A DNA stretch of 64,000 nt from a phage: the sequence record PV467749.1. One strand, given 5' to 3'. A program made the position numbers and the translations under genes. The notes beneath the pieces are model-generated. The model saw only the letters and a list, made by a program, of their open reading frames with translations, was not told where the DNA came from and ran no database searches. This document shows positions 26,824 to 63,194 of this stretch, one piece after another. How positions within the stretch are numbered: position 1 is the first letter of the stretch; each line of letters opens with the position of its first letter.

Positions 26824-27321
26824 TTACACTCCTAGATACAAATCTTGAATTTTCTCGTTCTCATCTGCAAAGTAAACACAAGGTGGATTATCACCACTGT
26901 GCAGAGGAACACATAGTAAGTTCTTCTTAGGCAGCATAGGGATCTGCCACTTAGTAGTGAGTGCGAATACACGCAGTACTTTTACAGGTTCAAACTTAGG
27001 ATACATCGAACGGATTGGATTGTAAACAAAAGCTTTAGGTTCTTTCATATTAAGAATGTTTTCAATGGTACACATCTCAACCATACCCGTCTCTTCATCA
27101 CCCAACATGATTTGCCAACCCAATGGTACTTGGATAATCTTTTCACCAATCTGCAAATCAGCACTGATACTATTAAATGATACAGTGTTCAAAATGTGGC
27201 GAAAATAAAAGTCAGAGTCACCGTTTGGACTCAAATCTAAAACACAATACATTTCTGATGGAATGTGTTCAGTTACTAAATCCATATCAAATGAATTATT
27301 TTCTGGGGTTAATACGTTCAT
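26824..27321 (-). CDS. hypothetical protein
   Basis: 165-aa ORF. Confidence 0.45.
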   Translation of the reverse strand: MNVLTPENNSFDMDLVTEHIPSEMYCVLDLSPNGDSDFYFRHILNTVSFNSISADLQIGEKIIQVPLGWQIMLGDEETGMVEMCTIENILNMKEPKAFVYNPIRSMYPKFEPVKVLRVFALTTKWQIPMLPKKNLLCVPLHSGDNPPCVYFADENEKIQDLYLGV

Positions 27322-27330
27322 CTCATCTCC

Positions 27331-27759
27331 TTAGTACTGGGAATCTTCATCTTCATCGTAGTAATCTTCTTCATCTTCATCGGATGTACCATAGAATTCA
27401 AGACCATACGTTTCACACATTTCTTGAATCTTATCAACATCGGTATCTAAGTAAGAATCAAAATTACCACTAAGACTAACAACATCAATAAACGTTGTAG
27501 TATCAGTACTTGCATAGATGATATCATATTTTAATGATTCAACTTTCGAGTCAATTCTGGTTTGCAATTCATAGATATTAATCCATGAATTAGTGTCAAT
27601 ATTACATCTCCAAACATTAGTATCGTCAGTTTCTAGTTCAGGTATATAGTCAAGTGAAGATACCATGTCATCCATAATACCATCATCATTCAACAATACA
27701 TCAATTACATCTAACGTTTCTTGGTCACAGATAAAAGCAATACTAGATCTTAATTCCAT
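27331..27759 (-). CDS. hypothetical acidic protein
   Basis: 142 aa; preceded by CATGATATAATG promoter-like 12-mer at 27794-27805. Confidence 0.45.
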   Translation of the reverse strand: MELRSSIAFICDQETLDVIDVLLNDDGIMDDMVSSLDYIPELETDDTNVWRCNIDTNSWINIYELQTRIDSKVESLKYDIIYASTDTTTFIDVVSLSGNFDSYLDTDVDKIQEMCETYGLEFYGTSDEDEEDYYDEDEDSQY

Positions 27760-27815
27760 TTTTATTTTACTTCCTTGTTGTTGTCATACGACACATTATA
27801 TCATGTACAGCGGGA

Positions 27816-29300
27816 TTATCCCGCTGTATTTTCCCAATCCTTAACATCTATGATACTATGAGGATATTGTGCTTCCTTATAGTATTGTAAACGTTCACGT
27901 AAGTGTTTTGCACTATATTTGTTTGTACCACTGATATCAAAGATTTCCACGTGGTCTTTGTCTTCTGCACGACGCAACCCACGACCAATGGACTGTATTG
28001 TACGAACGAAGCTTTTTCCTGGTTCGATTAGAACGACATTATACAAACGAGAAATACTGATACCAGTACTTGCTACCCCATAGGTTGCAATGAGTATTTT
28101 GTTATCAGCCCAGCGAATTTCACCATATGAAGATTCACGGTCTTTCTTTTTGGTTTCCCCACGAACAAATTCTGACTTAGGAATACCCAAAAATTCACAA
28201 AGCAATTCACCAGCTTCAAGTCTATCAACCAGTACTAAAGTGTTTCCAGATTCTGCTAACGCACCTATCAGTGATGCTACATATGCCATTCTATCACGGT
28301 CAGTAACTAAGTACTTCAATTCTTCTGCATATGACGCGAACTTTAAATTACTTTTAAGTTTAATACAGTTCACATTACATGTGCTTAGTATTTTTTTATC
28401 TTGTAATTCTTTAGCTGTGATTTTAAATATCACATCACCAACGTTACATTTAATCTTCGCAGCGACAACTTGGTCTTTAGGGATTGTACCAGTTAATCCC
28501 CAGCGAAGTGGGACGTTATTCATAACTTTAGAGAGTACTTGAACTAATGCATCACCACCAGCACCTTGACACTCATCGACAATCACACAAACCACACCAT
28601 CAATAAAGTCATGAACGTCTTGTTCAGTCAGTTCAATTTCACCTTTCTTTGTTTTCTTCCACAAAGAGTTGAATGACTGCCAGGTAGTGATTGTGTGTTG
28701 GTGACCAAAGTCTTTCTGTGCACCATAGAACACTCCAGTGTCAAGACCACACATAACATAGTCATCATATGTTTGCTGCACCAAATCAGTACTAGGTACG
28801 ATAATCACAGAACGTCCATACTCTTGTACCTTCTTGGATAATGCCGCTGTGATGAGCGTTTTACCAGCCCCTGTAGCTGCTAATAATAAACCATGTGGGT
28901 TTGCAAGGCAAGCATTAACTGCGTTCACCTGATGCTCTCTGAGCTTGATTGACTTACCTTCCATGTGGTGTCCAGCACCAAACACAACATCACTAAAAAT
29001 ATCTTCATCAATTGGTTCAAAATTGAATCCGTAATTGACACGATGATCTTCAAGTTCAATATCAATTTTTGCTTCATCTAAGATTGGCAACAACTTATCC
29101 AACATGTGGTAGTAAGTACTGCCACCTAAGTTCATAAACTGTACCTTACCATCCCAACGACCAATACGACCAGCAGGGGTGAACTTAGCGTATGGAAGTA
29201 CATATTCTGTTGCACGAATCATCTTCTGACGAATTGAGGGATCTAGTCCCTCAAATTTACAATTAACCTCGTCCAGTAAGGTTAGCTTACAAGTTTTCAT
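27816..29300 (-). CDS. uvsW: SF2 helicase (UvsW-like)
   Basis: 494 aa; Walker A LLAATGAGKT, DECQ box, motif VI QSIGRGLRR; sits next to uvsX region. Confidence 0.7.
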   Translation of the reverse strand: MKTCKLTLLDEVNCKFEGLDPSIRQKMIRATEYVLPYAKFTPAGRIGRWDGKVQFMNLGGSTYYHMLDKLLPILDEAKIDIELEDHRVNYGFNFEPIDEDIFSDVVFGAGHHMEGKSIKLREHQVNAVNACLANPHGLLLAATGAGKTLITAALSKKVQEYGRSVIIVPSTDLVQQTYDDYVMCGLDTGVFYGAQKDFGHQHTITTWQSFNSLWKKTKKGEIELTEQDVHDFIDGVVCVIVDECQGAGGDALVQVLSKVMNNVPLRWGLTGTIPKDQVVAAKIKCNVGDVIFKITAKELQDKKILSTCNVNCIKLKSNLKFASYAEELKYLVTDRDRMAYVASLIGALAESGNTLVLVDRLEAGELLCEFLGIPKSEFVRGETKKKDRESSYGEIRWADNKILIATYGVASTGISISRLYNVVLIEPGKSFVRTIQSIGRGLRRAEDKDHVEIFDISGTNKYSAKHLRERLQYYKEAQYPHSIIDVKDWENTAG

Positions 29301-45849: not shown

Positions 45850-47559
45850 TTAATAACCAATTGTTGTCCAGTACACGCCCAGTCCACGTGGATTATCATC
45901 ATTTGGGTTAGCTGCACCAACAGCAATCTGTGAGTTACTTAAAATATTACCATGTGATGCCCATGCAGCATCATTATCTGGACGACCTGATACTCTACCA
46001 GTTACTTGTAGATTTAAACAAGCATTTGGGTATGGTATAGGTAATGTTACAGTTACATACGAGTCATCCCCTACTGCCAAGTATCCCCACTGGGTTATCA
46101 TACCAGTATTGTTATCTTTATACCAGCCATTTTGTGTCAACGACGCAGAAGTTGTTGTGGTAGATATAGTTACATTACCACTTGCATCTGCCGCAGTACC
46201 GTTAACTGAACGTACAATGTTTTTACCAGATACTGTTGCAGAGTTAGAACTAACAACCAACGATGGAGAAGTTAGTACACCAGATGAGTTAATTGTAACT
46301 TCCGAACCACCATTACTTCTCAAACGTAATGTATTGTTAGATGAACTATGATAAATTGCTGCACGTTCACCATCAGTAGCGTTACGGAAGTAAAGTACTA
46401 ATGAAGTGTCATTTGAACGTATAGAAGCACTGTTAGCAATAGTCAATGAACCAGTCATTACATCACCAGTTTTAAGTACATAACGGGTGTTTGCAACTTT
46501 TTCACTCAAAGCAACGTTGGACTCAGCAATGTTATATAAGTATGCCACATTGAAGTGTGGTACGTCAATATTACTAATTCCGTGGCTGTGTGCTTGACCA
46601 CTACCAACGGTATTGGTTGAACCACTGAAACTATGCACGTGATCAGGTGCTTCGTTAATGTTATTAATTACAGTTGGGATTCCGTTGTCGTTACTGGATG
46701 TTAACGCATTAAGACCACTTCTGTCCATACCTTTTAGTGCCTGACTATGACCATGACGACCAGCAGCACCAGTAGTTCCACTGAAACTAAATGAGTGCGG
46801 TGGAAGTTGAGCAATTGATATCGCAGTACCACTAATTGATGCACTACTTGCAATCACACTATCAGTTTTAGTTACGCCTGATGTGGTAATGCCTTTCAAG
46901 TATGCTTCTTGGTTAAGATTCGGAACTTGTTTTGTGATTGTACCATTTTCACCAACCCATTGCCACCACATTCCATCAGCAAAACACCAACCATCAGAAG
47001 TTTTCCACGGAGAACCTTGTGAACCATTACGACCACTTTGACCATTGGTTACACCAGACATCTGTTCACGAATACTAGCAACAGTTTGTCCAGAAGTCAA
47101 TGAGTACTGGGTAATTGCACCAGGCTTCATTGAAGTATAAAGACCTGTTGGGCCAGTACCGCTACTTGATGGAGTAGGGAATACGATATTTAAATTCGTA
47201 CCACTAATGCTCGCACTTGGAACAGCACTACTACTATATGTTACAGTTTCAACTTTTAAATTCAGTTTACGGTTCACTTCATCGAGTGAAATACGGATTG
47301 GTTCAAGAATTGTATCAGTATCGTATACTGCAATCCAACTTGTCCCGTTGTGGTATTTTAACACCAACTCATTTCTATCAAATACCATCGCACCTTGCTC
47401 ACCTGCTGGCAATGCCTGTACTGGTAAAATGACAGAAGATGAATTAAAACGAATAGGTCTTGGATTAGTTGGTGTACCACCAAGCACTATTAGTTCTAAA
47501 GATCCATTAGCACCAGTACTAGTCATAGTATCCAGTGGGTTATTAAAACTTATGCTCAT
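45850..47559 (-). CDS. tail fiber protein
   Basis: 569 aa; S/T/G/N-rich beta-type composition; late-type AATAAATA motif upstream (47591-47599). Confidence 0.55.
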   Translation of the reverse strand: MSISFNNPLDTMTSTGANGSLELIVLGGTPTNPRPIRFNSSSVILPVQALPAGEQGAMVFDRNELVLKYHNGTSWIAVYDTDTILEPIRISLDEVNRKLNLKVETVTYSSSAVPSASISGTNLNIVFPTPSSSGTGPTGLYTSMKPGAITQYSLTSGQTVASIREQMSGVTNGQSGRNGSQGSPWKTSDGWCFADGMWWQWVGENGTITKQVPNLNQEAYLKGITTSGVTKTDSVIASSASISGTAISIAQLPPHSFSFSGTTGAAGRHGHSQALKGMDRSGLNALTSSNDNGIPTVINNINEAPDHVHSFSGSTNTVGSGQAHSHGISNIDVPHFNVAYLYNIAESNVALSEKVANTRYVLKTGDVMTGSLTIANSASIRSNDTSLVLYFRNATDGERAAIYHSSSNNTLRLRSNGGSEVTINSSGVLTSPSLVVSSNSATVSGKNIVRSVNGTAADASGNVTISTTTTSASLTQNGWYKDNNTGMITQWGYLAVGDDSYVTVTLPIPYPNACLNLQVTGRVSGRPDNDAAWASHGNILSNSQIAVGAANPNDDNPRGLGVYWTTIGY

Positions 47560-47600: not shown

Positions 47601-47924
47601 CTATAGCAAGTCGTTTTCCATATCGTCAAGAACAGAATCAACGATGTTCGCTGCTATCTTCTTAGGCATCTTGAACCACTCGGTGTTAGGTTGCCTTACT
47701 GCGTTCATTTGTTTTAGTCTTTTGTGAATTTCTTTCTCTGCTAAACGTGCATCTTCAAAGTGTACTTCATGGTATACCACAAAATCTCTAAAAGGTGTAG
47801 CAGTTTGATATGTCCTTAAACGTTCTGTCATTTCAGATTTACTGGTAAATCCTATCTTAACATAATCAGGCCACGCATCATTTACTATAACATAACATAT
47901 CTGTGACATAGAAAATATCTCCAT
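47601..47924 (-). CDS. T5orf172 (GIY-YIG-related) domain protein
   Basis: 107 aa; CYVIVND...YVKIGFT...EWF pattern. Confidence 0.5.
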   Translation of the reverse strand: MEIFSMSQICYVIVNDAWPDYVKIGFTSKSEMTERLRTYQTATPFRDFVVYHEVHFEDARLAEKEIHKRLKQMNAVRQPNTEWFKMPKKIAANIVDSVLDDMENDLL

Positions 47925-47948
47925 CAGTAATATGAAGATATTTATTAA

Positions 47949-48308
47949 TCAAGTAATTCGGAAATTTACCCCAGCATCAATTAGGCGTTGGAATGGGTTT
48001 TGTGGCTCGAATTCAGAAGGAGTTTTTGAAATGTTCAGTACTGGAGCATCAGCATGTAACTTTGACATACGTTCTTTGTACTTATCTAAGTATTCTTCAT
48101 ATAACATATCTTCAGTGTTACTATCAAGTATGTCTTCAATAAATGAATCAATACTATAGTCCAGTCTATCATCATTATAATACAAAGTTTCACTAGCTTC
48201 ATCATAACCAACTAAAGTCCCGTATGGAACGTTAATCTCAATTTTTGAGTACTGACTCTTTAAGTACTCTTCTTTCTTAAAAATGTATACAGTTAACATC
48301 CGTGTCAA
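47949..48308 (-). CDS. hypothetical protein
   Basis: 119-aa ORF inside the endonuclease-like island. Confidence 0.4.
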   Translation of the reverse strand: MTRMLTVYIFKKEEYLKSQYSKIEINVPYGTLVGYDEASETLYYNDDRLDYSIDSFIEDILDSNTEDMLYEEYLDKYKERMSKLHADAPVLNISKTPSEFEPQNPFQRLIDAGVNFRIT

Positions 48309-48322
48309 CTCCTTATGGTTGT

Positions 48323-49420
48323 TTACTTAAAAGTATTTACAATTTCTAAAACACTTTCAAGATACTTAGCATCAAAAGTTTCAGTAAATCCTGATGGCAA
48401 CTCTTCAGTACTTACCACACCACTTTCAATGTATTTCTTTATGAACTTTTCCAACAGTAATGGTTGATTGCCATCTTCAAAGTAGCGTTCTATAAGTACT
48501 TCATGCTCGAACTCAGAATTGCGGCTTTGTTCGTTAACACGGCGTTTCATATCACCAGTGATCCCATATTTGTACACCGTCTTGTTATTGTTAGTTAGTT
48601 TTTGTACATAGAAATATCCAGGTTTTGATGGTTGATATCCATATTCACCACATGATGGACATCCTTTACCAGCCATATGTGCTTTTGGTTGTTGGGAGAA
48701 GACACCATGAGTCGGACATACAATATCAATATAATTCTCGCTTAAAGTATATTCAACCAAGCTATAATCATACTTATGGTTATGGATAGGCGACACAAGT
48801 TCAATGAAACGTTCAGTGCTTCTTCCACCTTTACCAGAACATGTACCGCAGCCAGTTTTACCCTTCAATAAAGTTTGGGCTGAAACAGTCCATTCGTGTT
48901 TACCGCGTGTGCAATATACGGTAACTTCCGTTTTATTGTTAACATATTTGGTATTTGGAAATTCAAACGCACCACCATAGTTTTCTTTTACTTTTGCGAT
49001 GAATGATTCAGTACTGTATGCTTCATTTTTATTACAGACAGGACATCCCCTACCAGAAAGAAATTTGTTTGGTGTAATTTCAAAGTAATCGTTATGGTCT
49101 TCATCAGTGCAAAATAGTGTTACTTTTGTTATAGCGTTAGTGTAATTTAGTTTATCAAATTTGAATTTATCTTTACCAAATTTAGTTTCTACAGTACTGA
49201 TGAATGTGTCGTTGTTTGAACGCTGTGACATGTTTGAATAACATGATGCACATGTACATGCAATGTGACGAAGTGCAGACTTGGTGTTTTCTTTCCCACA
49301 CTTGTTACATTTTACTGTTGTTTTACTTGCCTTGAATACTAAAGTACTGAAGTCAAATTCTCCATACTTAGCAGTCATTTGGTTAATAAACTCTTCTTTG
49401 TTGATACTTACGTTTGGCAT
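48323..49420 (-). CDS. zinc-ribbon repeat + T5orf172-like domain protein (free-standing endonuclease-like)
   Basis: 365 aa; three repeats of a KYDYS..VEY...C..HG.F.Q.P..H..G.GCP.C module, then KPGYFYV...KYGIT C-terminal domain; paralog of 60324..61028. Confidence 0.55.
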   Translation of the reverse strand: MPNVSINKEEFINQMTAKYGEFDFSTLVFKASKTTVKCNKCGKENTKSALRHIACTCASCYSNMSQRSNNDTFISTVETKFGKDKFKFDKLNYTNAITKVTLFCTDEDHNDYFEITPNKFLSGRGCPVCNKNEAYSTESFIAKVKENYGGAFEFPNTKYVNNKTEVTVYCTRGKHEWTVSAQTLLKGKTGCGTCSGKGGRSTERFIELVSPIHNHKYDYSLVEYTLSENYIDIVCPTHGVFSQQPKAHMAGKGCPSCGEYGYQPSKPGYFYVQKLTNNNKTVYKYGITGDMKRRVNEQSRNSEFEHEVLIERYFEDGNQPLLLEKFIKKYIESGVVSTEELPSGFTETFDAKYLESVLEIVNTFK

Positions 49421-49489
49421 ATTTTTGTCTCTTTGATAGCGTGTATGTGCGTATTATACATAACCAAAAACATCATGTCAATGTTTTTA

Positions 49490-49516
49490 ATAAAAAAAGG
49501 GACTCCGAAGAGTCCC
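49490..49516 (-). terminator. intrinsic terminator downstream of major capsid gene
   Basis: GGGACUC-uucg-GAGUCCC hairpin followed by U7. Confidence 0.6.
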
Positions 49517-49560
49517 TATTGTTTTTAATTTCTTGATTAAATCTTTTAAATCGATTATAA

Positions 49561-50736
49561 TTACATGAAAGTAACGTTTTTGATAGCGATTTTGCTGTAG
49601 TAGTCAGCAGCGTTACCTAGTGAACTGGTGCTATCGGTCAACTGTACATAGCCATATCTGGTTAGAAAAGTTGTAACGAGTTCCCCAGTGTTAGGGTCCA
49701 TTACAGTACCGGAAGCCATTAGTGGGATGTATGGGCAATAGAACACACCAGCATCAGTTTCAGCGTTACCTTTGTAACCAATTAGGATATCTTCAACATC
49801 ACTTGCATAGGTATCAACGAAGATACGCATGGTGCTGTTTAGAGTACCAACAAATTTAACGTTAGTTGGAGCTTCGAAAGTACCTTCAGTAGTACGTGCA
49901 AAACTAGAAGTAGTTGCAGACTGTAGAATGGTTAGAGCGGTTGGAGAAACAACAGCCCAGTTCGCAGCACCACGTTTGGTACGACGAGCAACTTCGTTCG
50001 CTTGACGGTTGATTAGGGTAGCTAGAGCAGCGTGCTCGTCACCAACGAAGGTCGCAACACCAGTAACTTTAGATTGGTCATAAGTTACAGCAGCAGCACC
50101 AGGTAGTGCACGTAGACGGCTTAGTAGCTCTTGGTCGATTTCAACGGTAACTTCTTGAGCGATTGCAGCCATTAGTTCAGCTTCAACGTCAATACCATGT
50201 TGGGATTGTGCATCTTGTGCAGATTCAACAGTCCAACGTGCAGATAGACGACGAGATTTCGCTTCAACAGTTTCACGTAGAATACGGATGTTAACGCGAC
50301 GACCCATAGTACCTTCTAGTTGGCTAGTAGGAGCAGCTTGTGGGTTGCTGTTGTCTGCGTTTAGGTCACCAGTATAAGACTTAGCGATTTTGTATGGAGA
50401 AAGCATTTCTTCACCAGCGATAACACCAGGAGCGTTGTCAGCATATTGAACACGTAGGGTGTGGATCTGACCAACTGGGCCAGTCATTGGCTGAACACCG
50501 ATGATTTCGTTAGCGATTACGGTTGGCATAACACGACGCATAATTGGTAGAATCACTTTGTTTAGAGTAGCGATGTTACCAGCGGTGGTTGCACCAGAAG
50601 TAGCAGATTCGTTTAGCATTAGTTTACGATGGTTATCAAGTACGGTTTCCATTACGGACTTACGAGTACCTTGTAGACCTTCAACTAGTTTCTCTTTAAC
50701 TGCTACCCATTTGGATTCATTTAGTAGTTGTGACAT
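49561..50736 (-). CDS. major capsid protein (gp23-like)
   Basis: 391 aa; LPIMRRVMPTVIANEIIGVQPMTGPVGQIHTLRVQY matches the conserved gp23 segment; AAGGAG RBS; CTA-biased codons. Confidence 0.85.
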   Translation of the reverse strand: MSQLLNESKWVAVKEKLVEGLQGTRKSVMETVLDNHRKLMLNESATSGATTAGNIATLNKVILPIMRRVMPTVIANEIIGVQPMTGPVGQIHTLRVQYADNAPGVIAGEEMLSPYKIAKSYTGDLNADNSNPQAAPTSQLEGTMGRRVNIRILRETVEAKSRRLSARWTVESAQDAQSQHGIDVEAELMAAIAQEVTVEIDQELLSRLRALPGAAAVTYDQSKVTGVATFVGDEHAALATLINRQANEVARRTKRGAANWAVVSPTALTILQSATTSSFARTTEGTFEAPTNVKFVGTLNSTMRIFVDTYASDVEDILIGYKGNAETDAGVFYCPYIPLMASGTVMDPNTGELVTTFLTRYGYVQLTDSTSSLGNAADYYSKIAIKNVTFM

Positions 50737-57970: not shown

Positions 57971-58807
57971 ATGGCAATGAACCCACTAGCTAAGTATACT
58001 AAAATTGAAGAACTTGGTACAAAATTGGTCACAAATGGCGTGATTCCTTATAAAGAAGGAGTTCTTGGCTCTAAAGGTATCAAATGTGGCATTTGTGCTC
58101 GTAGTGCACGCGATGAAATGACACTCAATACACCAGATATGCTTCTAAATGGTGATGCAATTGCTCGTGTTATTGAAAACTGCGTACCTAACGTACTTGA
58201 TGCAGATGAACTTTATGTAAATGACGTAGAGCAACTACTTATCGCTATTAAAGTAGCTTCTAAAGAAGAATCATATGATATTAATGTGACATGTCCTGAA
58301 TGTAACAAAGAAGGCCGTTTTGAGCGTAGCTTATCATATCTACTAGAAACAGCACATACTTTCAGTGAAGTTCCTACTGTACAATTGGATAATGGACTAA
58401 GTTTAGAGTTTAGACCACTTACTTGGAAGGAATATTCTAACTTCGCAGAAAGAATGTTTACAGAACAACAAAAAACTAAATTCCTTGAAACTGCCGAAAT
58501 GGAGCAGGAAGAAAAAGTTAAAGTGTTTGGTGAAGTATTTGAAAGTATGGCACAACTCAACTTTGATATGATCGCAGGAGTTATTGCTAAAGTAATTACT
58601 CCTGAAGGTGATGAAGTAACTGAAAACGAATTCATTTCTGAATGGCTAGGTCAGCAGTCCAAAGGAACACTTAAAATAATTCGTGAAAAAATGGATGAAG
58701 TACTTGAAATTGGTGTTTCCCATACTATGGAAGTTGAATGCAGTGACTGTAATCATCAATGGGAAATTAATGGACTGAAATATGACCCAAGTCATTTTTT
58801 CGCATAA
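57971..58807 (+). CDS. hypothetical protein with two CxxC pairs
   Basis: ORF 57902..58807 (start probably ATG 57971 after GGAG); CGIC...CPEC and CSDC motifs. Confidence 0.45.
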   Translation: MAMNPLAKYTKIEELGTKLVTNGVIPYKEGVLGSKGIKCGICARSARDEMTLNTPDMLLNGDAIARVIENCVPNVLDADELYVNDVEQLLIAIKVASKEESYDINVTCPECNKEGRFERSLSYLLETAHTFSEVPTVQLDNGLSLEFRPLTWKEYSNFAERMFTEQQKTKFLETAEMEQEEKVKVFGEVFESMAQLNFDMIAGVIAKVITPEGDEVTENEFISEWLGQQSKGTLKIIREKMDEVLEIGVSHTMEVECSDCNHQWEINGLKYDPSHFFA

Positions 58808-59016
58808 TGCTTCTCCACTCATCTCCTGAAGAAATACAAGAAGTACTTAAGGAATTTGAGTTGAATAAGTCAGATATTAAAACTGCATTAATGGAGTGTT
58901 CTGTTTATATGGAAAGTGTTGATTACGGAACACTACTTAATATGCCACTAATTGATAGAGACTTATTAGTTAAGTCTTTTAATAAGAAAATTAAAAAACA
59001 AAACGAGAAGCACTAA
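58807..59016 (+). CDS. hypothetical small protein
   Basis: 69-aa ORF coupled to the upstream gene. Confidence 0.35.
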   Translation: MLLHSSPEEIQEVLKEFELNKSDIKTALMECSVYMESVDYGTLLNMPLIDRDLLVKSFNKKIKKQNEKH

Positions 59017-59025
59017 CTCACAAGG

Positions 59026-59055
59026 AGCCAGCACATTGTTGCTGGTTTTTTTTTG
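59026..59055 (+). terminator. intrinsic terminator
   Basis: GCCAGCA/TGCTGGT hairpin followed by T9. Confidence 0.55.
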
Positions 59056-59269
59056 GTTTTAAACTACAGAATTGATTGAATTGAATTATGAAAGGAATTA
59101 ATTATTTTATAGTGAACTCATCTAACTCATTTCATTCGTTAGCTGAAGAATATTCGTTACTACGTAACTCATATTCATTTCTTATAATTAATTATAAAGA
59201 ACTTTAAAAGATTTAATACTTGACGGGATTTGTTGAAGACATTTTCATCCCCCCGCAGGGGAATGAAGA

Positions 59270-59726
59270 CAATAAAAAAGAGACAATTAAGTCTCTTAAT
59301 TCTTGACGCTGATGGTTTCAGCATTTATTGTATTGCGAATTTCTTAAAATTCATTAAGAACGAAAGCGGGTTGCTCTGTTTCTCTCTATCGCAGTCATGT
59401 GCAACGGTCGTCAGTCTTAATCATCCTGACACTCACCTGAAAGTCTATACAATCAAACTTCAGGCTGTTTATTAAATCACTTAATAAACTCCCTTAGCAA
59501 ATCTGGTAAGGTGCGATCCTTATACATCTATCGAGGAACTCTCTGTATGCTTATCGGAGTTCTTTATTGAGCCGTGTCGCCGTGAGGGGTTCAAACTATG
59601 CCCACATCTAACGGGTTTCTTCTGCTCATCGCACTGTTGAACTGCTCATCTGCCATCTACATTTTCGATAGGATCAGGTTCTAATTTATATGCATTTCTG
59701 CATTCAACAGGATTGTCATCACTACA
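59270..59726 (-). ncRNA. candidate non-coding RNA (promoter-to-terminator unit with no ORF)
   Basis: GAGACA-N16-TGCTATAAT promoter at 59733-59760 points into an ~455-nt stretch with no ORF of 60 aa or more (from the ORF track) and no RBS-linked small ORF found by eye; hairpin plus U-run at 59270-59297; local GC above surroundings. Confidence 0.3.
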
Positions 59727-59732
59727 ATTAAC

Positions 59733-59760
59733 ATTATAGCACCAAATTCAAAAGTGTCTC
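59733..59760 (-). promoter_or_regulatory. sigma70-like promoter GAGACA-N16-TGCTATAAT
   Basis: Plus attatagca at 59733-59741 and tgtctc at 59755-59760. Confidence 0.4.
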
Positions 59761-59854
59761 ACTATTATGATAAAAAATTTATAAAAAGTACATAATTCTT
59801 GAACATTGAAGTAACGCATAAATATTTTGATAAGAATTAGTTTAGTGGGGATTT

Positions 59855-60340
59855 ATGAAGAAAAGATTAAAAGATAGTAAAGAAGCTGCAAACTATCGAA
59901 ATGAATTACTAAAGAAGCAAAAAGGAATTGATCCTATAATTAAGGAACCAATAACTAAGCCAGTACTTGATCACTATCACTTCGAGAATCAACATTGTCG
60001 CGGAGTACTCCAGAATGAGATAAACGCCTTTGAGGGTAAGGTTTCCAACGCATGGAACCGATATGGAAAGCATTTAACTGATATGCCATTACATGAAGTA
60101 CTAAGAAACCTTGCAGATTATCTTGAAAAGAACAATAATATCCCACTGGAAGAACAGGTGATTCATCACACGGCACTAACTGTGGATGTAAACAAGTTTA
60201 AAAGGCTCCCTGCAACGCGTCAGAACGAGATATTGGGGTTATGCGGTATAGAGCCATTACCTAATACAAAAGAACGCTCAAAGAGAGCTAGAGAGCTTAT
60301 TAAGAAAGGAATTCTCAATATAAATGAATACAAAAAATGA
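59855..60340 (+). CDS. endonuclease VII-like (gp49-like) His-Me finger nuclease
   Basis: 161 aa; LDHYHFENQHCRGVLQNEINAFEG resembles the endo VII core; late-type CATAAATATTT motif at 59817-59828. Confidence 0.55.
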   Translation: MKKRLKDSKEAANYRNELLKKQKGIDPIIKEPITKPVLDHYHFENQHCRGVLQNEINAFEGKVSNAWNRYGKHLTDMPLHEVLRNLADYLEKNNNIPLEEQVIHHTALTVDVNKFKRLPATRQNEILGLCGIEPLPNTKERSKRARELIKKGILNINEYKK

Positions 60341-61028
60341 TATTTTTATAGATAAAGCAAATATAAAACATAACAACAAATATGAATATACATTAGTTGA
60401 GTATGTAAATAATTACACTAAAGTTAAAATTATATGTAAGAAACATGGTATGTTTTCACAAACTCCAAATCACCATTTAAAAGGAAGTGGATGTAATGAA
60501 TGTTACTTAGAAAGCAAGCACGATACTAAAGATGACTTCATAAAAAAATCCATGAAAGTTCATGGTGAATTATATGATTACTCAAATGTGATATATAAAT
60601 CTTCAAAGAAAAAAGTTGAAATTATATGCAATAAACATGGTTCTTTTTATCAGAGGCCACATGAACATATATCAGGTAAAGGTTGTTCAGAATGTGGAGT
60701 TGGTGGTTACAAGAGAAGTAAACCAGGTCGTTTATATGTATATGAAGTTTTACAAGACGACAAAACTATAGCATACAAATACGGAATAACTAATGGTACT
60801 ATTAATAATAGAAAATATTACCATGAGTATCACTCTAACTTAAAATTTAATTGTGTTTATGAACTATATGATGAAGATGGTAATGTTCCATATAATATAG
60901 AAAAAGCAATAAAAGCTGGCATGAAAAGTGTTTTTTTATCAAAAACTATTTTAGAAGTTGGGTATACCGAAACGATAGAACCGTCTTTATATGAAGATTT
61001 GATTAATATAATAAAAAAAGGGAGCTAA
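60324..61028 (+). CDS. zinc-ribbon repeat + T5orf172-like domain protein (free-standing endonuclease-like)
   Basis: 234 aa; two KYEYT..VEY...C..HG.F.Q.P..H..G.GC.EC modules then KPGRLYVYEV...KYGIT; paralog of 48323..49420. Confidence 0.55.
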   Translation: MNTKNDIFIDKANIKHNNKYEYTLVEYVNNYTKVKIICKKHGMFSQTPNHHLKGSGCNECYLESKHDTKDDFIKKSMKVHGELYDYSNVIYKSSKKKVEIICNKHGSFYQRPHEHISGKGCSECGVGGYKRSKPGRLYVYEVLQDDKTIAYKYGITNGTINNRKYYHEYHSNLKFNCVYELYDEDGNVPYNIEKAIKAGMKSVFLSKTILEVGYTETIEPSLYEDLINIIKKGS

Positions 61029-61045
61029 GGCTCCCTTTCCTTTTA
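61013..61045. terminator. bidirectional intrinsic terminator
   Basis: GGGAGC-taag-GCTCCC hairpin flanked by A7 and T-rich run. Confidence 0.5.
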
Positions 61046-61046
61046 A

Positions 61047-63194
61047 TTAGAAAACATCATCCAGAGTTGTATACTCAACAGTACTGAAACCATCCTCTTT
61101 AACTACTTTTAGGATTTTCTCAGTCTTAGAAAGCAATTCTTCTCTGTGAGAAATGGCATATACATTCTTACCACGCACAGCAGCCATATCTTGGAAGATA
61201 GACCACACGCGAAGAACACCACTTGAATCAAGACCTTGGTCAATCATCTCATCAATGATAAGAATATTGATACTTTGATACAATGACTCATATGTATCAC
61301 GGAAAGCACAAGATAAAGCAATGTTTACCCTTGTACGCTCACCACGACTAAGCTGTTTATAGTCAAAGTACTGACCACTTTTCTCAATTTCTACACTCAA
61401 ATCATTCAAGAACACAACATTATGTTCAGAACCACACATATCAATGTAATATTGAAGACGTGTATTCAGATACGAAATGTTTTGTTCAATAATACGCTTA
61501 CGGACATAAGAATCCTTGTTTAACAACAATTTAACCAAGAAATCTTGGTGATTTGCCATCTTATCAAGGTTATTATAGTCACTATAGTCGATTGGTACTA
61601 ATGAATCGGTCGTAAGTGTATTAATTTGTCCAATAAATGTGTTAGTAGTTTTCAATTCACGATCTAATTGCTGTGATAATGAAGTTACTGTCATTTCTAA
61701 CTCTTTTACTTCAGATTTATTCAATGTATCTGGTACTTCTTGAAGAACATGTGCGTTCAGTTCTTCATATGATGACATAAGTTCATTAGCATAGATGTTA
61801 ATTTGCTCTTCTTCACTCTTTTTAATAAGTTCTTGAAGCTTATGCTCATGCATTTGTGCTTCAGTTAGTGTAGAATAGAATGTCACAGGCTTAGGTGGCA
61901 TATCAAAAATCTCAATACTATCAATTTCCTGAAGTATTGTTTCAATTTCAGAAGTGGAACTATCAATTTTCGATTGAAGTTCATTAATAGTATTTTGAAT
62001 TTTATCTTTAATAGACGAAGTATGTTCATTATGTTCTAATTCGGACATACAAAGTGGACATTTACTACTCTCCACTGTTGCTAATTTGTCCACCTCAGCA
62101 CGTAACGAACTCTCATGACCATTTAAAGCCACCTTTAATGCGTTAAGTTTTTGTTCTTTGAAACGTTTTTGGTTATTATTCTCTTTTAGAATACCCTCCA
62201 ACTGTTTCCATATCTCCAACTCATTGTGATTTTCTAATTCAGTACTGATATCAATAGTTTTTAGCTTATCAATACTTACATTTAATGCTAATTTTGCTGT
62301 TGCTAGTTCACGGTCATATGCATCATACTTCAAAGCTAACTCTTGCACACGTCTTTCTATTTGATCACGAGCAGCATTATGAATAAGAGCTTTCTCTTTC
62401 ACTTCTGCCAAATCATAGAGATCGTTGAAGTCTAAAGTTTTGTAGATATTCAATTCTTCAGTCAACTTAGATACTCTATTATTTTTATCAATCTCAAATT
62501 GGTTAGCTTGTTCTTGTAATGATTCAATACTTTTTTGAATACGTTCATTACTTGCAGCCACAGTTTCAATTTTGAACTTTTCTTGTTCAGCTAAACGTTT
62601 AGAATCTTTATACATATCCTTTAATAGTTCAGCTTTCTCTGTTAATTGTGTGATGCCCAGAAGTTCCTCAATCATATCACGTTGTTTCTGTGATGATAAT
62701 GCAAGAAACGGCTCTACGTTAGCATTAAGTACTACAATATGTTCAAATAGTAGTTGAGAAATCCCAAGAATCTCGTTTAGATCTTCTTGTGTATCTTTCT
62801 TCTCCCCTCTTGACTCATCTTCGACCTTATTATCTTTACCTAATGTAATAAAGTTGAAATACGTGGGACTTCTCCCACGCTCGACGAGATATTGTACACC
62901 ATCTTTCTCGAACTCAACAGATACTTCACAGTTTTTAGCATTAGTTTTATTAACTAAGTTTGGAATTTTGATATCGTTACCAATACTTTTTCCAAACAAA
63001 CCAAAAACTAAACCTTGAATGATGGCACTTTTACCAACACCATTACGGCGACCGGAACTATCACCACCTTCAATAACTGCATCATTGTTTTGACCAAGAA
63101 CTAACGATATATCAGCACCAGACAAATCAATTACTTGTGGTGCATTGCCAAATGAAAAGAAGTTCCTCATTGATATACGTGTAATGTTTAGCAC
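61047..63194 (-). CDS. Rad50/SbcC-like recombination ATPase (gp46-like)
   Basis: 715 aa; N-terminal Walker A (GQNNDAVIEGGDSSGRRNGVGKSA), long coiled coil with CPLC zinc hook, C-terminal signature/Walker B (LSRGERTRVNIA...ILIIDE). Confidence 0.8.
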   Translation of the reverse strand: MLNITRISMRNFFSFGNAPQVIDLSGADISLVLGQNNDAVIEGGDSSGRRNGVGKSAIIQGLVFGLFGKSIGNDIKIPNLVNKTNAKNCEVSVEFEKDGVQYLVERGRSPTYFNFITLGKDNKVEDESRGEKKDTQEDLNEILGISQLLFEHIVVLNANVEPFLALSSQKQRDMIEELLGITQLTEKAELLKDMYKDSKRLAEQEKFKIETVAASNERIQKSIESLQEQANQFEIDKNNRVSKLTEELNIYKTLDFNDLYDLAEVKEKALIHNAARDQIERRVQELALKYDAYDRELATAKLALNVSIDKLKTIDISTELENHNELEIWKQLEGILKENNNQKRFKEQKLNALKVALNGHESSLRAEVDKLATVESSKCPLCMSELEHNEHTSSIKDKIQNTINELQSKIDSSTSEIETILQEIDSIEIFDMPPKPVTFYSTLTEAQMHEHKLQELIKKSEEEQINIYANELMSSYEELNAHVLQEVPDTLNKSEVKELEMTVTSLSQQLDRELKTTNTFIGQINTLTTDSLVPIDYSDYNNLDKMANHQDFLVKLLLNKDSYVRKRIIEQNISYLNTRLQYYIDMCGSEHNVVFLNDLSVEIEKSGQYFDYKQLSRGERTRVNIALSCAFRDTYESLYQSINILIIDEMIDQGLDSSGVLRVWSIFQDMAAVRGKNVYAISHREELLSKTEKILKVVKEDGFSTVEYTTLDDVF

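Follow-up and report, generated by a model that had tools for sequence, protein, structure and literature searches.

Two probable homing endonuclease genes of the T5orf172 type behind the major capsid and endonuclease VII genes of an Asteriusvirus-type jumbo coliphage

Between the tail-fibre gene (45850-47559) and the major capsid gene (49561-50736) of the phage DNA in sequence record PV467749.1, three open reading frames (ORFs) lie on the minus strand, and the question that they raise is whether a selfish island has been inserted there as a whole or whether mobility is a property of only some of its genes. The stretch analysed here (the window) comprises 64,000 nucleotides (nt) of an Asteriusvirus-type (121Q/PBECO4-like) jumbo coliphage. 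A previous interpretation made from the letters alone (the sequence-only reading) had already placed the three ORFs at this position, which was borne out, and had proposed that all of them were inserted and that the largest, of 365 amino acids (aa), had a 234-aa paralog elsewhere in the window, both being homing-type elements. The comparative analysis described below divides the locus differently. We assign a probability of roughly 80% to the view that two insertion hotspots, hereafter locus 1 and locus 2 (Table 1), harbour free-standing homing endonuclease genes (HEGs) of the T5orf172 type (GIY-YIG superfamily), namely the 365-aa and the 234-aa gene, respectively, whereas the two small genes of 116 and 102 aa next to the first one are constant among relatives.

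The 6-kb segment around locus 1 finds matches in 73 phage records. The best are those of two Escherichia phages, Turkey3, which matches over the full length at 95.7%, and vB_Ec-M-J, at 98.2%; behind them come 121Q, PBECO4 and further jumbo coliphages of Asteriusvirus. Read along the minus strand, the order is DNA polymerase, a 101-aa gene, the tail fibre, the three ORFs, the Gp23-type major capsid and a scaffold protein. Synteny was followed in 21 Asteriusvirus genomes, in the distant phages Munch, fENko-Kae01 and PHA46, and in 80 IMG/VR contigs with a related capsid gene; the 36 relatives referred to below are the 21 Asteriusvirus, the 3 genomes of the Munch/Kae01/PHA46 type and 12 Rak2-like IMG/VR contigs with a capsid protein identity of 85-92%.

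Behind the capsid gene, the Asteriusvirus genomes have a slot with changing contents. It is empty in four of the 21 (fEgEco12, PBECO4, CMSTMSU and SD-1_S14), and the capsid stop codon is separated from the ATG of the 116-aa gene by 1261 nt in the window versus 71-118 nt in empty genomes. Eight genomes contain the 365/368-aa gene, named here allele A (protein identity 84-99%), and nine have other occupants, namely a 306-307-aa allele whose C-terminal half is common with allele A (three genomes), a 332-aa T5orf172 protein (three), a 408-aa CapR/DUF723/DUF4379/MUG113 protein (one) and a 532-552-aa protein of a different family, DUF7487 (two). In the Rak2-like contigs, the slot is occupied in only 1 of 12. 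Alignment to insert-free fEgEco12 and PBECO4 delimits the cassette sharply, with homology stopping past the T-run of the capsid terminator and restarting precisely at the ATG at 48299, and the 23-nt tail of the cassette provides the 116-aa gene with a new AAGGAG ribosome-binding site. Every other type of occupant has a readable -35/-10 pair upstream and ends 15-28 nt before the same ATG. Among allele-A copies, the ratio of nonsynonymous to synonymous substitution rates (dN/dS) is 0.12, which points to purifying selection on the 365-aa gene and to a probably retained function, and the cassettes are themselves mosaic.

The similarity of these HEGs is uncoupled from that of the genomes around them. 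The window and phage BAU encode HEG proteins that are 97.8% identical, with capsid genes differing by 6.1% and 116-aa genes by 19.5%; the window and BF17, on the other hand, differ in their flanks by only 0.1% (capsid) and 0.6% (116-aa), and their HEG proteins are just 87% identical. This mismatch shows horizontal transfer of the 365-aa HEG, whose cassette has moved between genome backgrounds.

Moreover, the presence of allele A is accompanied by a recoding of the neighbouring capsid gene. The capsid genes (1176 nt) of the window and of insert-free fEgEco12 show 16 differences, 15 of them inside nt 1057-1119 and all synonymous, and the 116-aa genes are identical; at locus 1 the two genomes are near-isogenic and differ essentially by cassette and patch only. 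The same pattern recurs in other backgrounds, when BAU is compared with G17 and E9.1 or BF17 with WPEC5. Across 20 genomes, the nucleotide diversity of the capsid gene reaches a peak of 0.20 at nt 1072-1134, versus ~0.05 elsewhere and 0.02 in the final 42 nt, and the last 42 residues of the protein are identical. In the first 1050 nt of the gene, allele-A genomes are 0.048 apart and equally 0.048 from other genomes, and in the last 126 nt the divergence within them is 0.042 versus 0.159 to the rest. In the whole phage collection, a 91-nt patch region at least 91% identical to that of the window was found in exactly 12 phages (Ec-M-J, BAU, BF17, JP4, WPEC3, Turkey3, 121Q, UB, phAPEC6, SP27, A4 and CRJP21), all of them carriers of allele A; EJP2, whose slot occupant is 62% identical, shows 89%, and all remaining records show 88% or less. 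The patch variant is present in every allele-A genome and absent from genomes without allele A. In this region, the variant of fEgEco12 and WPEC5, presumed sensitive, reads TTGACTGATAGTACTTCTTCTCTTGG, and that of the window phage, presumed resistant, reads TTGACCGATAGCACCAGTTCACTAGG. The patch is a candidate for a target in cleavage-resistant form or, otherwise, for a co-conversion tract, and we give even odds to the more specific proposal that the allele-A enzyme naturally recognizes or cleaves these 63 silent nt, which would be present here in their resistant form. A second, smaller peak of silent diversity is seen at capsid nt 883-945 (window 49792-49854; nucleotide diversity 0.123 versus ~0.05), which could be a recoded site for another class of occupants of the slot.

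At locus 2, the 234-aa gene follows an endonuclease VII-like gene (59855-60340; Endonuclease_7 17.8 bits, for a Pfam cutoff of 23.6; phrog_423 'endonuclease VII', 5e-35), which, up to its stop codon, extends 17 nt into the 234-aa ORF. The 234-aa gene is covered by none of 57 related phage records; coverage of the region 58800-61300 by any phage record is 69% at most, the uncovered part being this gene, and its best tblastn identity among 50,697 phage records is 40%. An identical protein is nonetheless encoded on 21 assembly or metagenome contigs, always between a 161-aa endonuclease VII and an SbcC-like gene. With respect to fEgEco12, there are 0 differences over 58800-59950 and 30-44 differences per 100 nt from 59995 onward, and the last ~35 codons of endonuclease VII (60237-60340) represent a strongly diverged homologous replacement. 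At the right boundary, the bases of the terminator hairpin end the endonuclease VII gene in insert-free genomes and are reused by the 234-aa ORF. Phage TH47 carries at the same spot a different, 340-aa relative, and the matches of TH47, ph0011, JNE01 and A4 to the window all end near 60216-60231.

Some further observations concern this region. A search of the ORF-poor stretch 58900-60000 for repeats, Rfam families and intra-window copies returned nothing. Megablast of 58800-61300 gave 3-4 separate matching places per related genome, and no repeat of 59000-59860 was detected within the window. In Salmonella phage SD-1_S14, the capsid terminator directly adjoins the start codon of the 116-aa gene, no spacer lying between them, and endonuclease VII is missing entirely, with only very small ORFs annotated in its place at about 27222-27909; both facts together suggest local deletions in this phage.

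The two proteins are paralogs, with 36% identity over 225 aa (E-value 8e-40) and additional off-register matches that reveal repeated modules, and both match phrog_681 'endonuclease' (1e-76 for the 365-aa and 3.7e-50 for the 234-aa protein), all of which bears out the shared modular architecture proposed by the sequence-only reading; no third paralog was found within the window. In the 365-aa protein, the zinc-ribbon modules occupy about residues 8-62, 70-130, 137-196 and 202-258, and the nuclease-type domain residues 265-365. An AlphaFold (AF2) model based on 41 homologues (predicted local distance difference test score, pLDDT, 85.9) shows four modules, each made of a helix plus a beta-hairpin, whose Cys/His ligands are conserved, and after them a compact alpha/beta domain, which in the model has a GIY-YIG alpha/beta fold. 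Across the 41 sequences, the Cys triplets of the modules are conserved, Y271, G286, I287 and E347 never vary, and conservation of R293/R294 is at least 90%; by motif position, Y271, R293/R294 and E347 may be equated with the catalytic Tyr, the Arg and the metal-binding Glu.

Searches with profile hidden Markov models gave a graded picture of the domains. T5orf172 was clear for the 102-aa protein and DUF4379 exceeded its cutoff in the 234-aa protein (29 bits versus 24.5), whereas the 365-aa protein, which had been listed as the second T5orf172 gene, stays below the Pfam threshold. Among the 41 aligned homologues, T5orf172 (PF10544) is matched by 18 (best 5e-6), MUG113 (PF13455) by 17 (best 2e-8), DUF4379 by 35, DUF723 by 15 and CapR by 8; the 365-aa protein itself shows sub-threshold matches to DUF4379, DUF723 and CapR (the last with 15.3 bits versus a cutoff of 24.2). 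Modules of the CapR/DUF723/DUF4379 type are found N-terminal to a nuclease-type domain, that is, as a zinc-finger array. The profile of the family alignment gave nothing meaningful against PDB sequences, and NCBIfam gave no matches for the five proteins examined. Six metagenomic proteins with zinc-ribbon modules of the 234-aa type are labelled 'very-short-patch-repair endonuclease' at source, names from which the same DNA-binding modules appear to be fused also to a different nuclease fold.

Two features are common to both loci. One is sporadic presence at a fixed site, as seen in the occupancy of the locus 1 slot and in the absence of the locus 2 gene from the related records, and the other a linked change of flanking markers, which at locus 1 is the capsid patch and at locus 2 the diverged 3' part of endonuclease VII. 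Together with the cassette's own promoter and the uncoupling from genome background in the case of the 365-aa gene, they lend support to the homing-type interpretation that the sequence-only reading had given to both genes. In the mechanism that we propose, host RNA polymerase would transcribe the HEG early from the sigma-70 promoter of the cassette, as its perfect match to the consensus suggests; the string of zinc-ribbon modules would read DNA and the C-terminal GIY-YIG-like domain would cut it. In a mixed infection, the enzyme would cleave the insert-free allele of a related phage inside the 3' portion of the conserved neighbour, which encodes the major capsid protein at locus 1 and endonuclease VII at locus 2. 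Repair off the HEG-bearing genome would then copy in the cassette plus adjoining donor sequence, whose silent or diverged substitutions would render the site uncuttable.

Several points weigh against this interpretation. DNA binding, cleavage and homing are activities that we infer for the 365-aa and 234-aa proteins, and the literature itself calls the family 'putative' HEGs, nuclease activity being cited for one T5orf172 protein only (PMC10448857). The T5orf172 match of the 365-aa protein attains only 17.9 bits (cutoff 20; E-value 0.0044), and Pfam gives no T5orf172 match for the 234-aa protein. When the profile of the C-terminal domain is compared by hhalign with that of the bona fide T5orf172 gene nearby, the probability is only 30%, and BLASTP found no similarity between the 365-aa protein and a 107-aa protein, so that close kinship of the two nuclease-type domains is not claimed. 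Regarding the slot, the empty sites might be products of loss and not the ancestral state: when empty-site spacers were aligned with cassette leaders, z scores were at most 3.1, and the spacer of PBECO4 is marginally similar to the allele-A leader (z about 3). Finally, the patch could be donor sequence that hitch-hiked with the cassette and not a recognition site. The 306-307-aa allele lacks the recoding, and the capsid gene of WPEC5, which carries this allele, is identical to that of empty fEgEco12; the patch is consequently not a general requirement for occupancy of the slot.

Among other explanations, the one that survives best, although we consider it unlikely, is that the phage has domesticated the 365-aa and 234-aa proteins, which would serve it as nucleases or DNA-binding regulators, either in exclusion of competitors or satellites, like Odn of ICP1, or in CapR-like repression, with a patchiness due to accessory-gene flux and not to homing. 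Zinc-finger modules of the same kind as those of the repressor CapR, the co-option of T5orf172 proteins in conflicts between ICP1 and its satellites, the purifying selection on allele A and the strong early-type promoter would all fit such roles. However, accessory-gene flux explains neither the tightly linked 63-nt silent recoding of the capsid gene nor the diverged endonuclease VII 3' end with its sharp breakpoint, and several unrelated nuclease genes substitute for one another in the same slot. Exclusion of competitors is in addition a normal by-product of homing, so that both readings overlap to this extent. A much poorer case can be made for decaying relics of old homing endonucleases that have lost their activity, as the low scores of both window proteins for Pfam nuclease domains could suggest; both ORFs are intact, their catalytic-type residues are invariant, the dN/dS is low, near-identical copies turn up in genomes of divergent background, and the 100% identity of the 234-aa insertion on all 21 contigs makes it look recent.

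The remaining two ORFs have a different history from that of the 365-aa gene, and the proposal that three genes were inserted holds for the latter, which is variable, and fails for them. Synteny shows the 365-aa gene to be present in only some relatives, the 234-aa gene to be absent from the related phage records and the 116-aa and 102-aa genes, one of them with a nuclease-type domain, to be constant: they occupy the same position in 36 of 36 relatives (21/21 Asteriusvirus, Munch, Kae01, PHA46 and 12/12 Rak2-like contigs), and IMG/VR contigs with 64-72% capsid identity carry neither. Their dN/dS values are 0.115 (116-aa) and 0.024 (102-aa). By the synteny criterion that the sequence-only reading itself had set, they are not inserts; they are core genes, fixed in the Asteriusvirus/Rak2-like clade and under purifying selection. 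That all three form one inserted selfish island, an idea favoured by T5orf172-type domains in two of three adjacent genes on the same strand, is hardly tenable in view of this universal presence, of the constraint on the small genes and of a homology to insert-free genomes that restarts exactly at the start codon of the 116-aa gene.

Some details of the two genes differ from those given by the sequence-only reading. The 116-aa gene starts at the ATG at 48299 and not at the TTG at 48308, and for the 102-aa gene the most likely start is 47909, the one given in the annotation of most relatives, with a GGAG 9 nt upstream; the weak ribosome-binding sites attributed to the locus were an error for these genes, which have AAGGAG (116-aa) and GGAG (102-aa). 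The 102-aa protein is a clear T5orf172 member (50.6 bits, cutoff 20; E-value 3e-13) with invariant motif residues. The 116-aa protein is acidic and gave a structure model of low confidence; 5.8 billion proteins contain only 13 clusters of its homologues. The order of the two, 116-aa and then T5orf172, mirrors the domain order of the mobile genes. Less likely, the pair may descend from an ancient element akin to the mobile genes, which would have been fixed and have acquired a core function. PADLOC detected for the 102-aa protein a similarity to the candidate system PDC-S57 at domain level only, and its matches of zinc ribbons to Cas12 models are at chance level; neither was taken as evidence of defence.

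The tail-fibre cassette (45850-47559) adjoining locus 1 is also polymorphic among relatives. In the window, Turkey3, WPEC5 and Turkey5, the fibre is encoded by a single gene of 569-572 aa, whose C-terminus is Gp53-like, and a separate assembly gene is lacking; in Ec-M-J, 121Q, PBECO4, fEgEco12, BAU and G17, a 536-542-aa fibre is accompanied by a tail-fibre assembly gene of ~171 aa, and phage A4 has two chaperone genes in this cassette. Elsewhere, the large terminase of Escherichia phage UE-S1 (2380-5037) is annotated with 885 aa versus ~546 aa in BAU, G17 and SD-1_S14, an extra length that may correspond to an intein or other inserted element.

Table 1. Positions in the window of the features discussed in the text.
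Feature	Position	Strand	Remarks
365-aa free-standing homing-endonuclease-type gene, 'allele A'	48323-49420	-	four zinc-ribbon modules and C-terminal GIY-YIG/T5orf172-like domain
Whole variable cassette (~1.2 kb)	48300-49490	-	leader with promoter, HEG ORF, 23-nt tail; from alignment to insert-free fEgEco12 and PBECO4
Sigma-70-type promoter of the cassette, TTGACA-17 nt-TATAAT	49453-49481	-	12/12 consensus matches
Intrinsic terminator hairpin of the capsid gene, left boundary of the slot	49498-49517	.	conserved in all relatives
Major capsid protein gene, Gp23 family	49561-50736	-	Pfam Gp23 9.5e-90; conserved neighbour of the slot
Recoded synonymous 63-nt patch in the capsid gene	49618-49680	-	gene nt 1057-1119, 57-120 nt before the stop
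234-aa paralogous HEG-type gene	60324-61028	+	two zinc-ribbon modules; C-terminal nuclease-type domain as in the 365-aa protein
Diverged 3' part of the endonuclease VII-like gene, arrived with the 234-aa gene	59995-60340	+	breakpoint versus fEgEco12
Bidirectional terminator hairpin GGGAGC-TAAG-GCTCCC, right boundary of insert 2	61020-61035	.	234-aa stop codon in the loop
116-aa conserved gene, phrog_15724	47949-48299	-	outside the mobile cassette; no Pfam family
102-aa stand-alone T5orf172/GIY-YIG-type protein	47601-47909	-	conserved core gene of the clade

As regards the meaning of these results, HEGs are the kind of selfish element expected in a large lytic phage, and their placement next to capsid genes has been described before (PMC10448857). 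If the patch is indeed the target, the slot behind the capsid gene would be an arms-race hotspot where T5orf172 and other nuclease genes displace one another and the 3' end of the capsid gene is recoded repeatedly at silent sites, and homing of the T5orf172 family would gain a concrete target with sensitive and resistant alleles, none being described in the T5orf172 literature cited here. Taken together, the window phage, fEgEco12 and WPEC5 provide the cassette junctions, a candidate target of 63 nt and a matched set of resistant and sensitive alleles, and, since natural near-isogenic genomes define the system, T5orf172-type homing becomes directly testable. On the practical side, the annotation of the locus can be corrected, with one 'hypothetical protein' or 'endonuclease' gene that is mobile and two small neighbours that are core, and the silent-site diversity at the 3' end of the capsid gene is unsuitable as a neutral phylogenetic signal in these phages.

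Among known systems, similar in behaviour are the SegF and SegG proteins of phage T4, reportedly free-standing GIY-YIG endonucleases responsible for intronless homing, whose genes are said to lie between conserved genes and whose cut, reportedly demonstrated, falls inside the neighbouring conserved gene some distance off, with co-conversion of flanking markers and exclusion of those of the competitor. The window genes share with them the intronless homing-type placement and the GIY-YIG superfamily, with a cleavage that is putative here. In the Seg proteins, the GIY-YIG domain is N-terminal and a helix-turn-helix-type DNA-binding region is C-terminal, whereas in the 365-aa and 234-aa proteins this order is reversed and DNA binding is predicted to depend on zinc-ribbon repeats; therefore, although they seem to resemble SegF and SegG in behaviour, they are not members of the Seg family. 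The GIY-YIG domains of SLX1, I-TevI, UvrC and Eco29kI show only marginal sequence similarity to theirs, in which a YV...K-[YI]-G-[IF]-T motif replaces the classical GIY...YIG.

Within the zinc-finger proteins, CapR of the Vibrio cholerae PLE satellites has the same kind of Cys-based module and targets a phage capsid locus but is devoid of a nuclease domain, being a repressor of transcription from the capsid promoter (PMC8096241). The work of Netter et al. in 2021 tied these modules to CapR and listed, among the proteins that have them, the T5orf172 protein Gp121 of ICP1, numbered next to the capsid gp122 (PMC8096241). In 2023, Barth, Dunham and Seed described T5orf172 HEGs with repeated zinc-finger modules of the CapR/DUF723 type and modular shuffling, often beside essential genes and with capsid genes in 31% of the neighbourhoods (PMC10448857). 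Asteriusvirus and jumbo coliphages go unmentioned in the main text and supplements of that study, locus 1 is not discussed in two Asteriusvirus genome papers, and the 121Q orthologue of the 365-aa protein (gp604, YP_009102191.1; 90.7% identity, same position) is annotated as 'endonuclease' by name only. The genes described here resemble the T5orf172 HEGs of Barth et al. in having repeated N-terminal zinc-finger modules and a C-terminal domain of the T5orf172/GIY-YIG type, in being free-standing and adjoining capsid or other essential genes, and in having mosaic alleles with shuffled modules, and they differ from them in that near-isogenic genomes reveal here both a candidate target patch and the precise junctions of the cassette.

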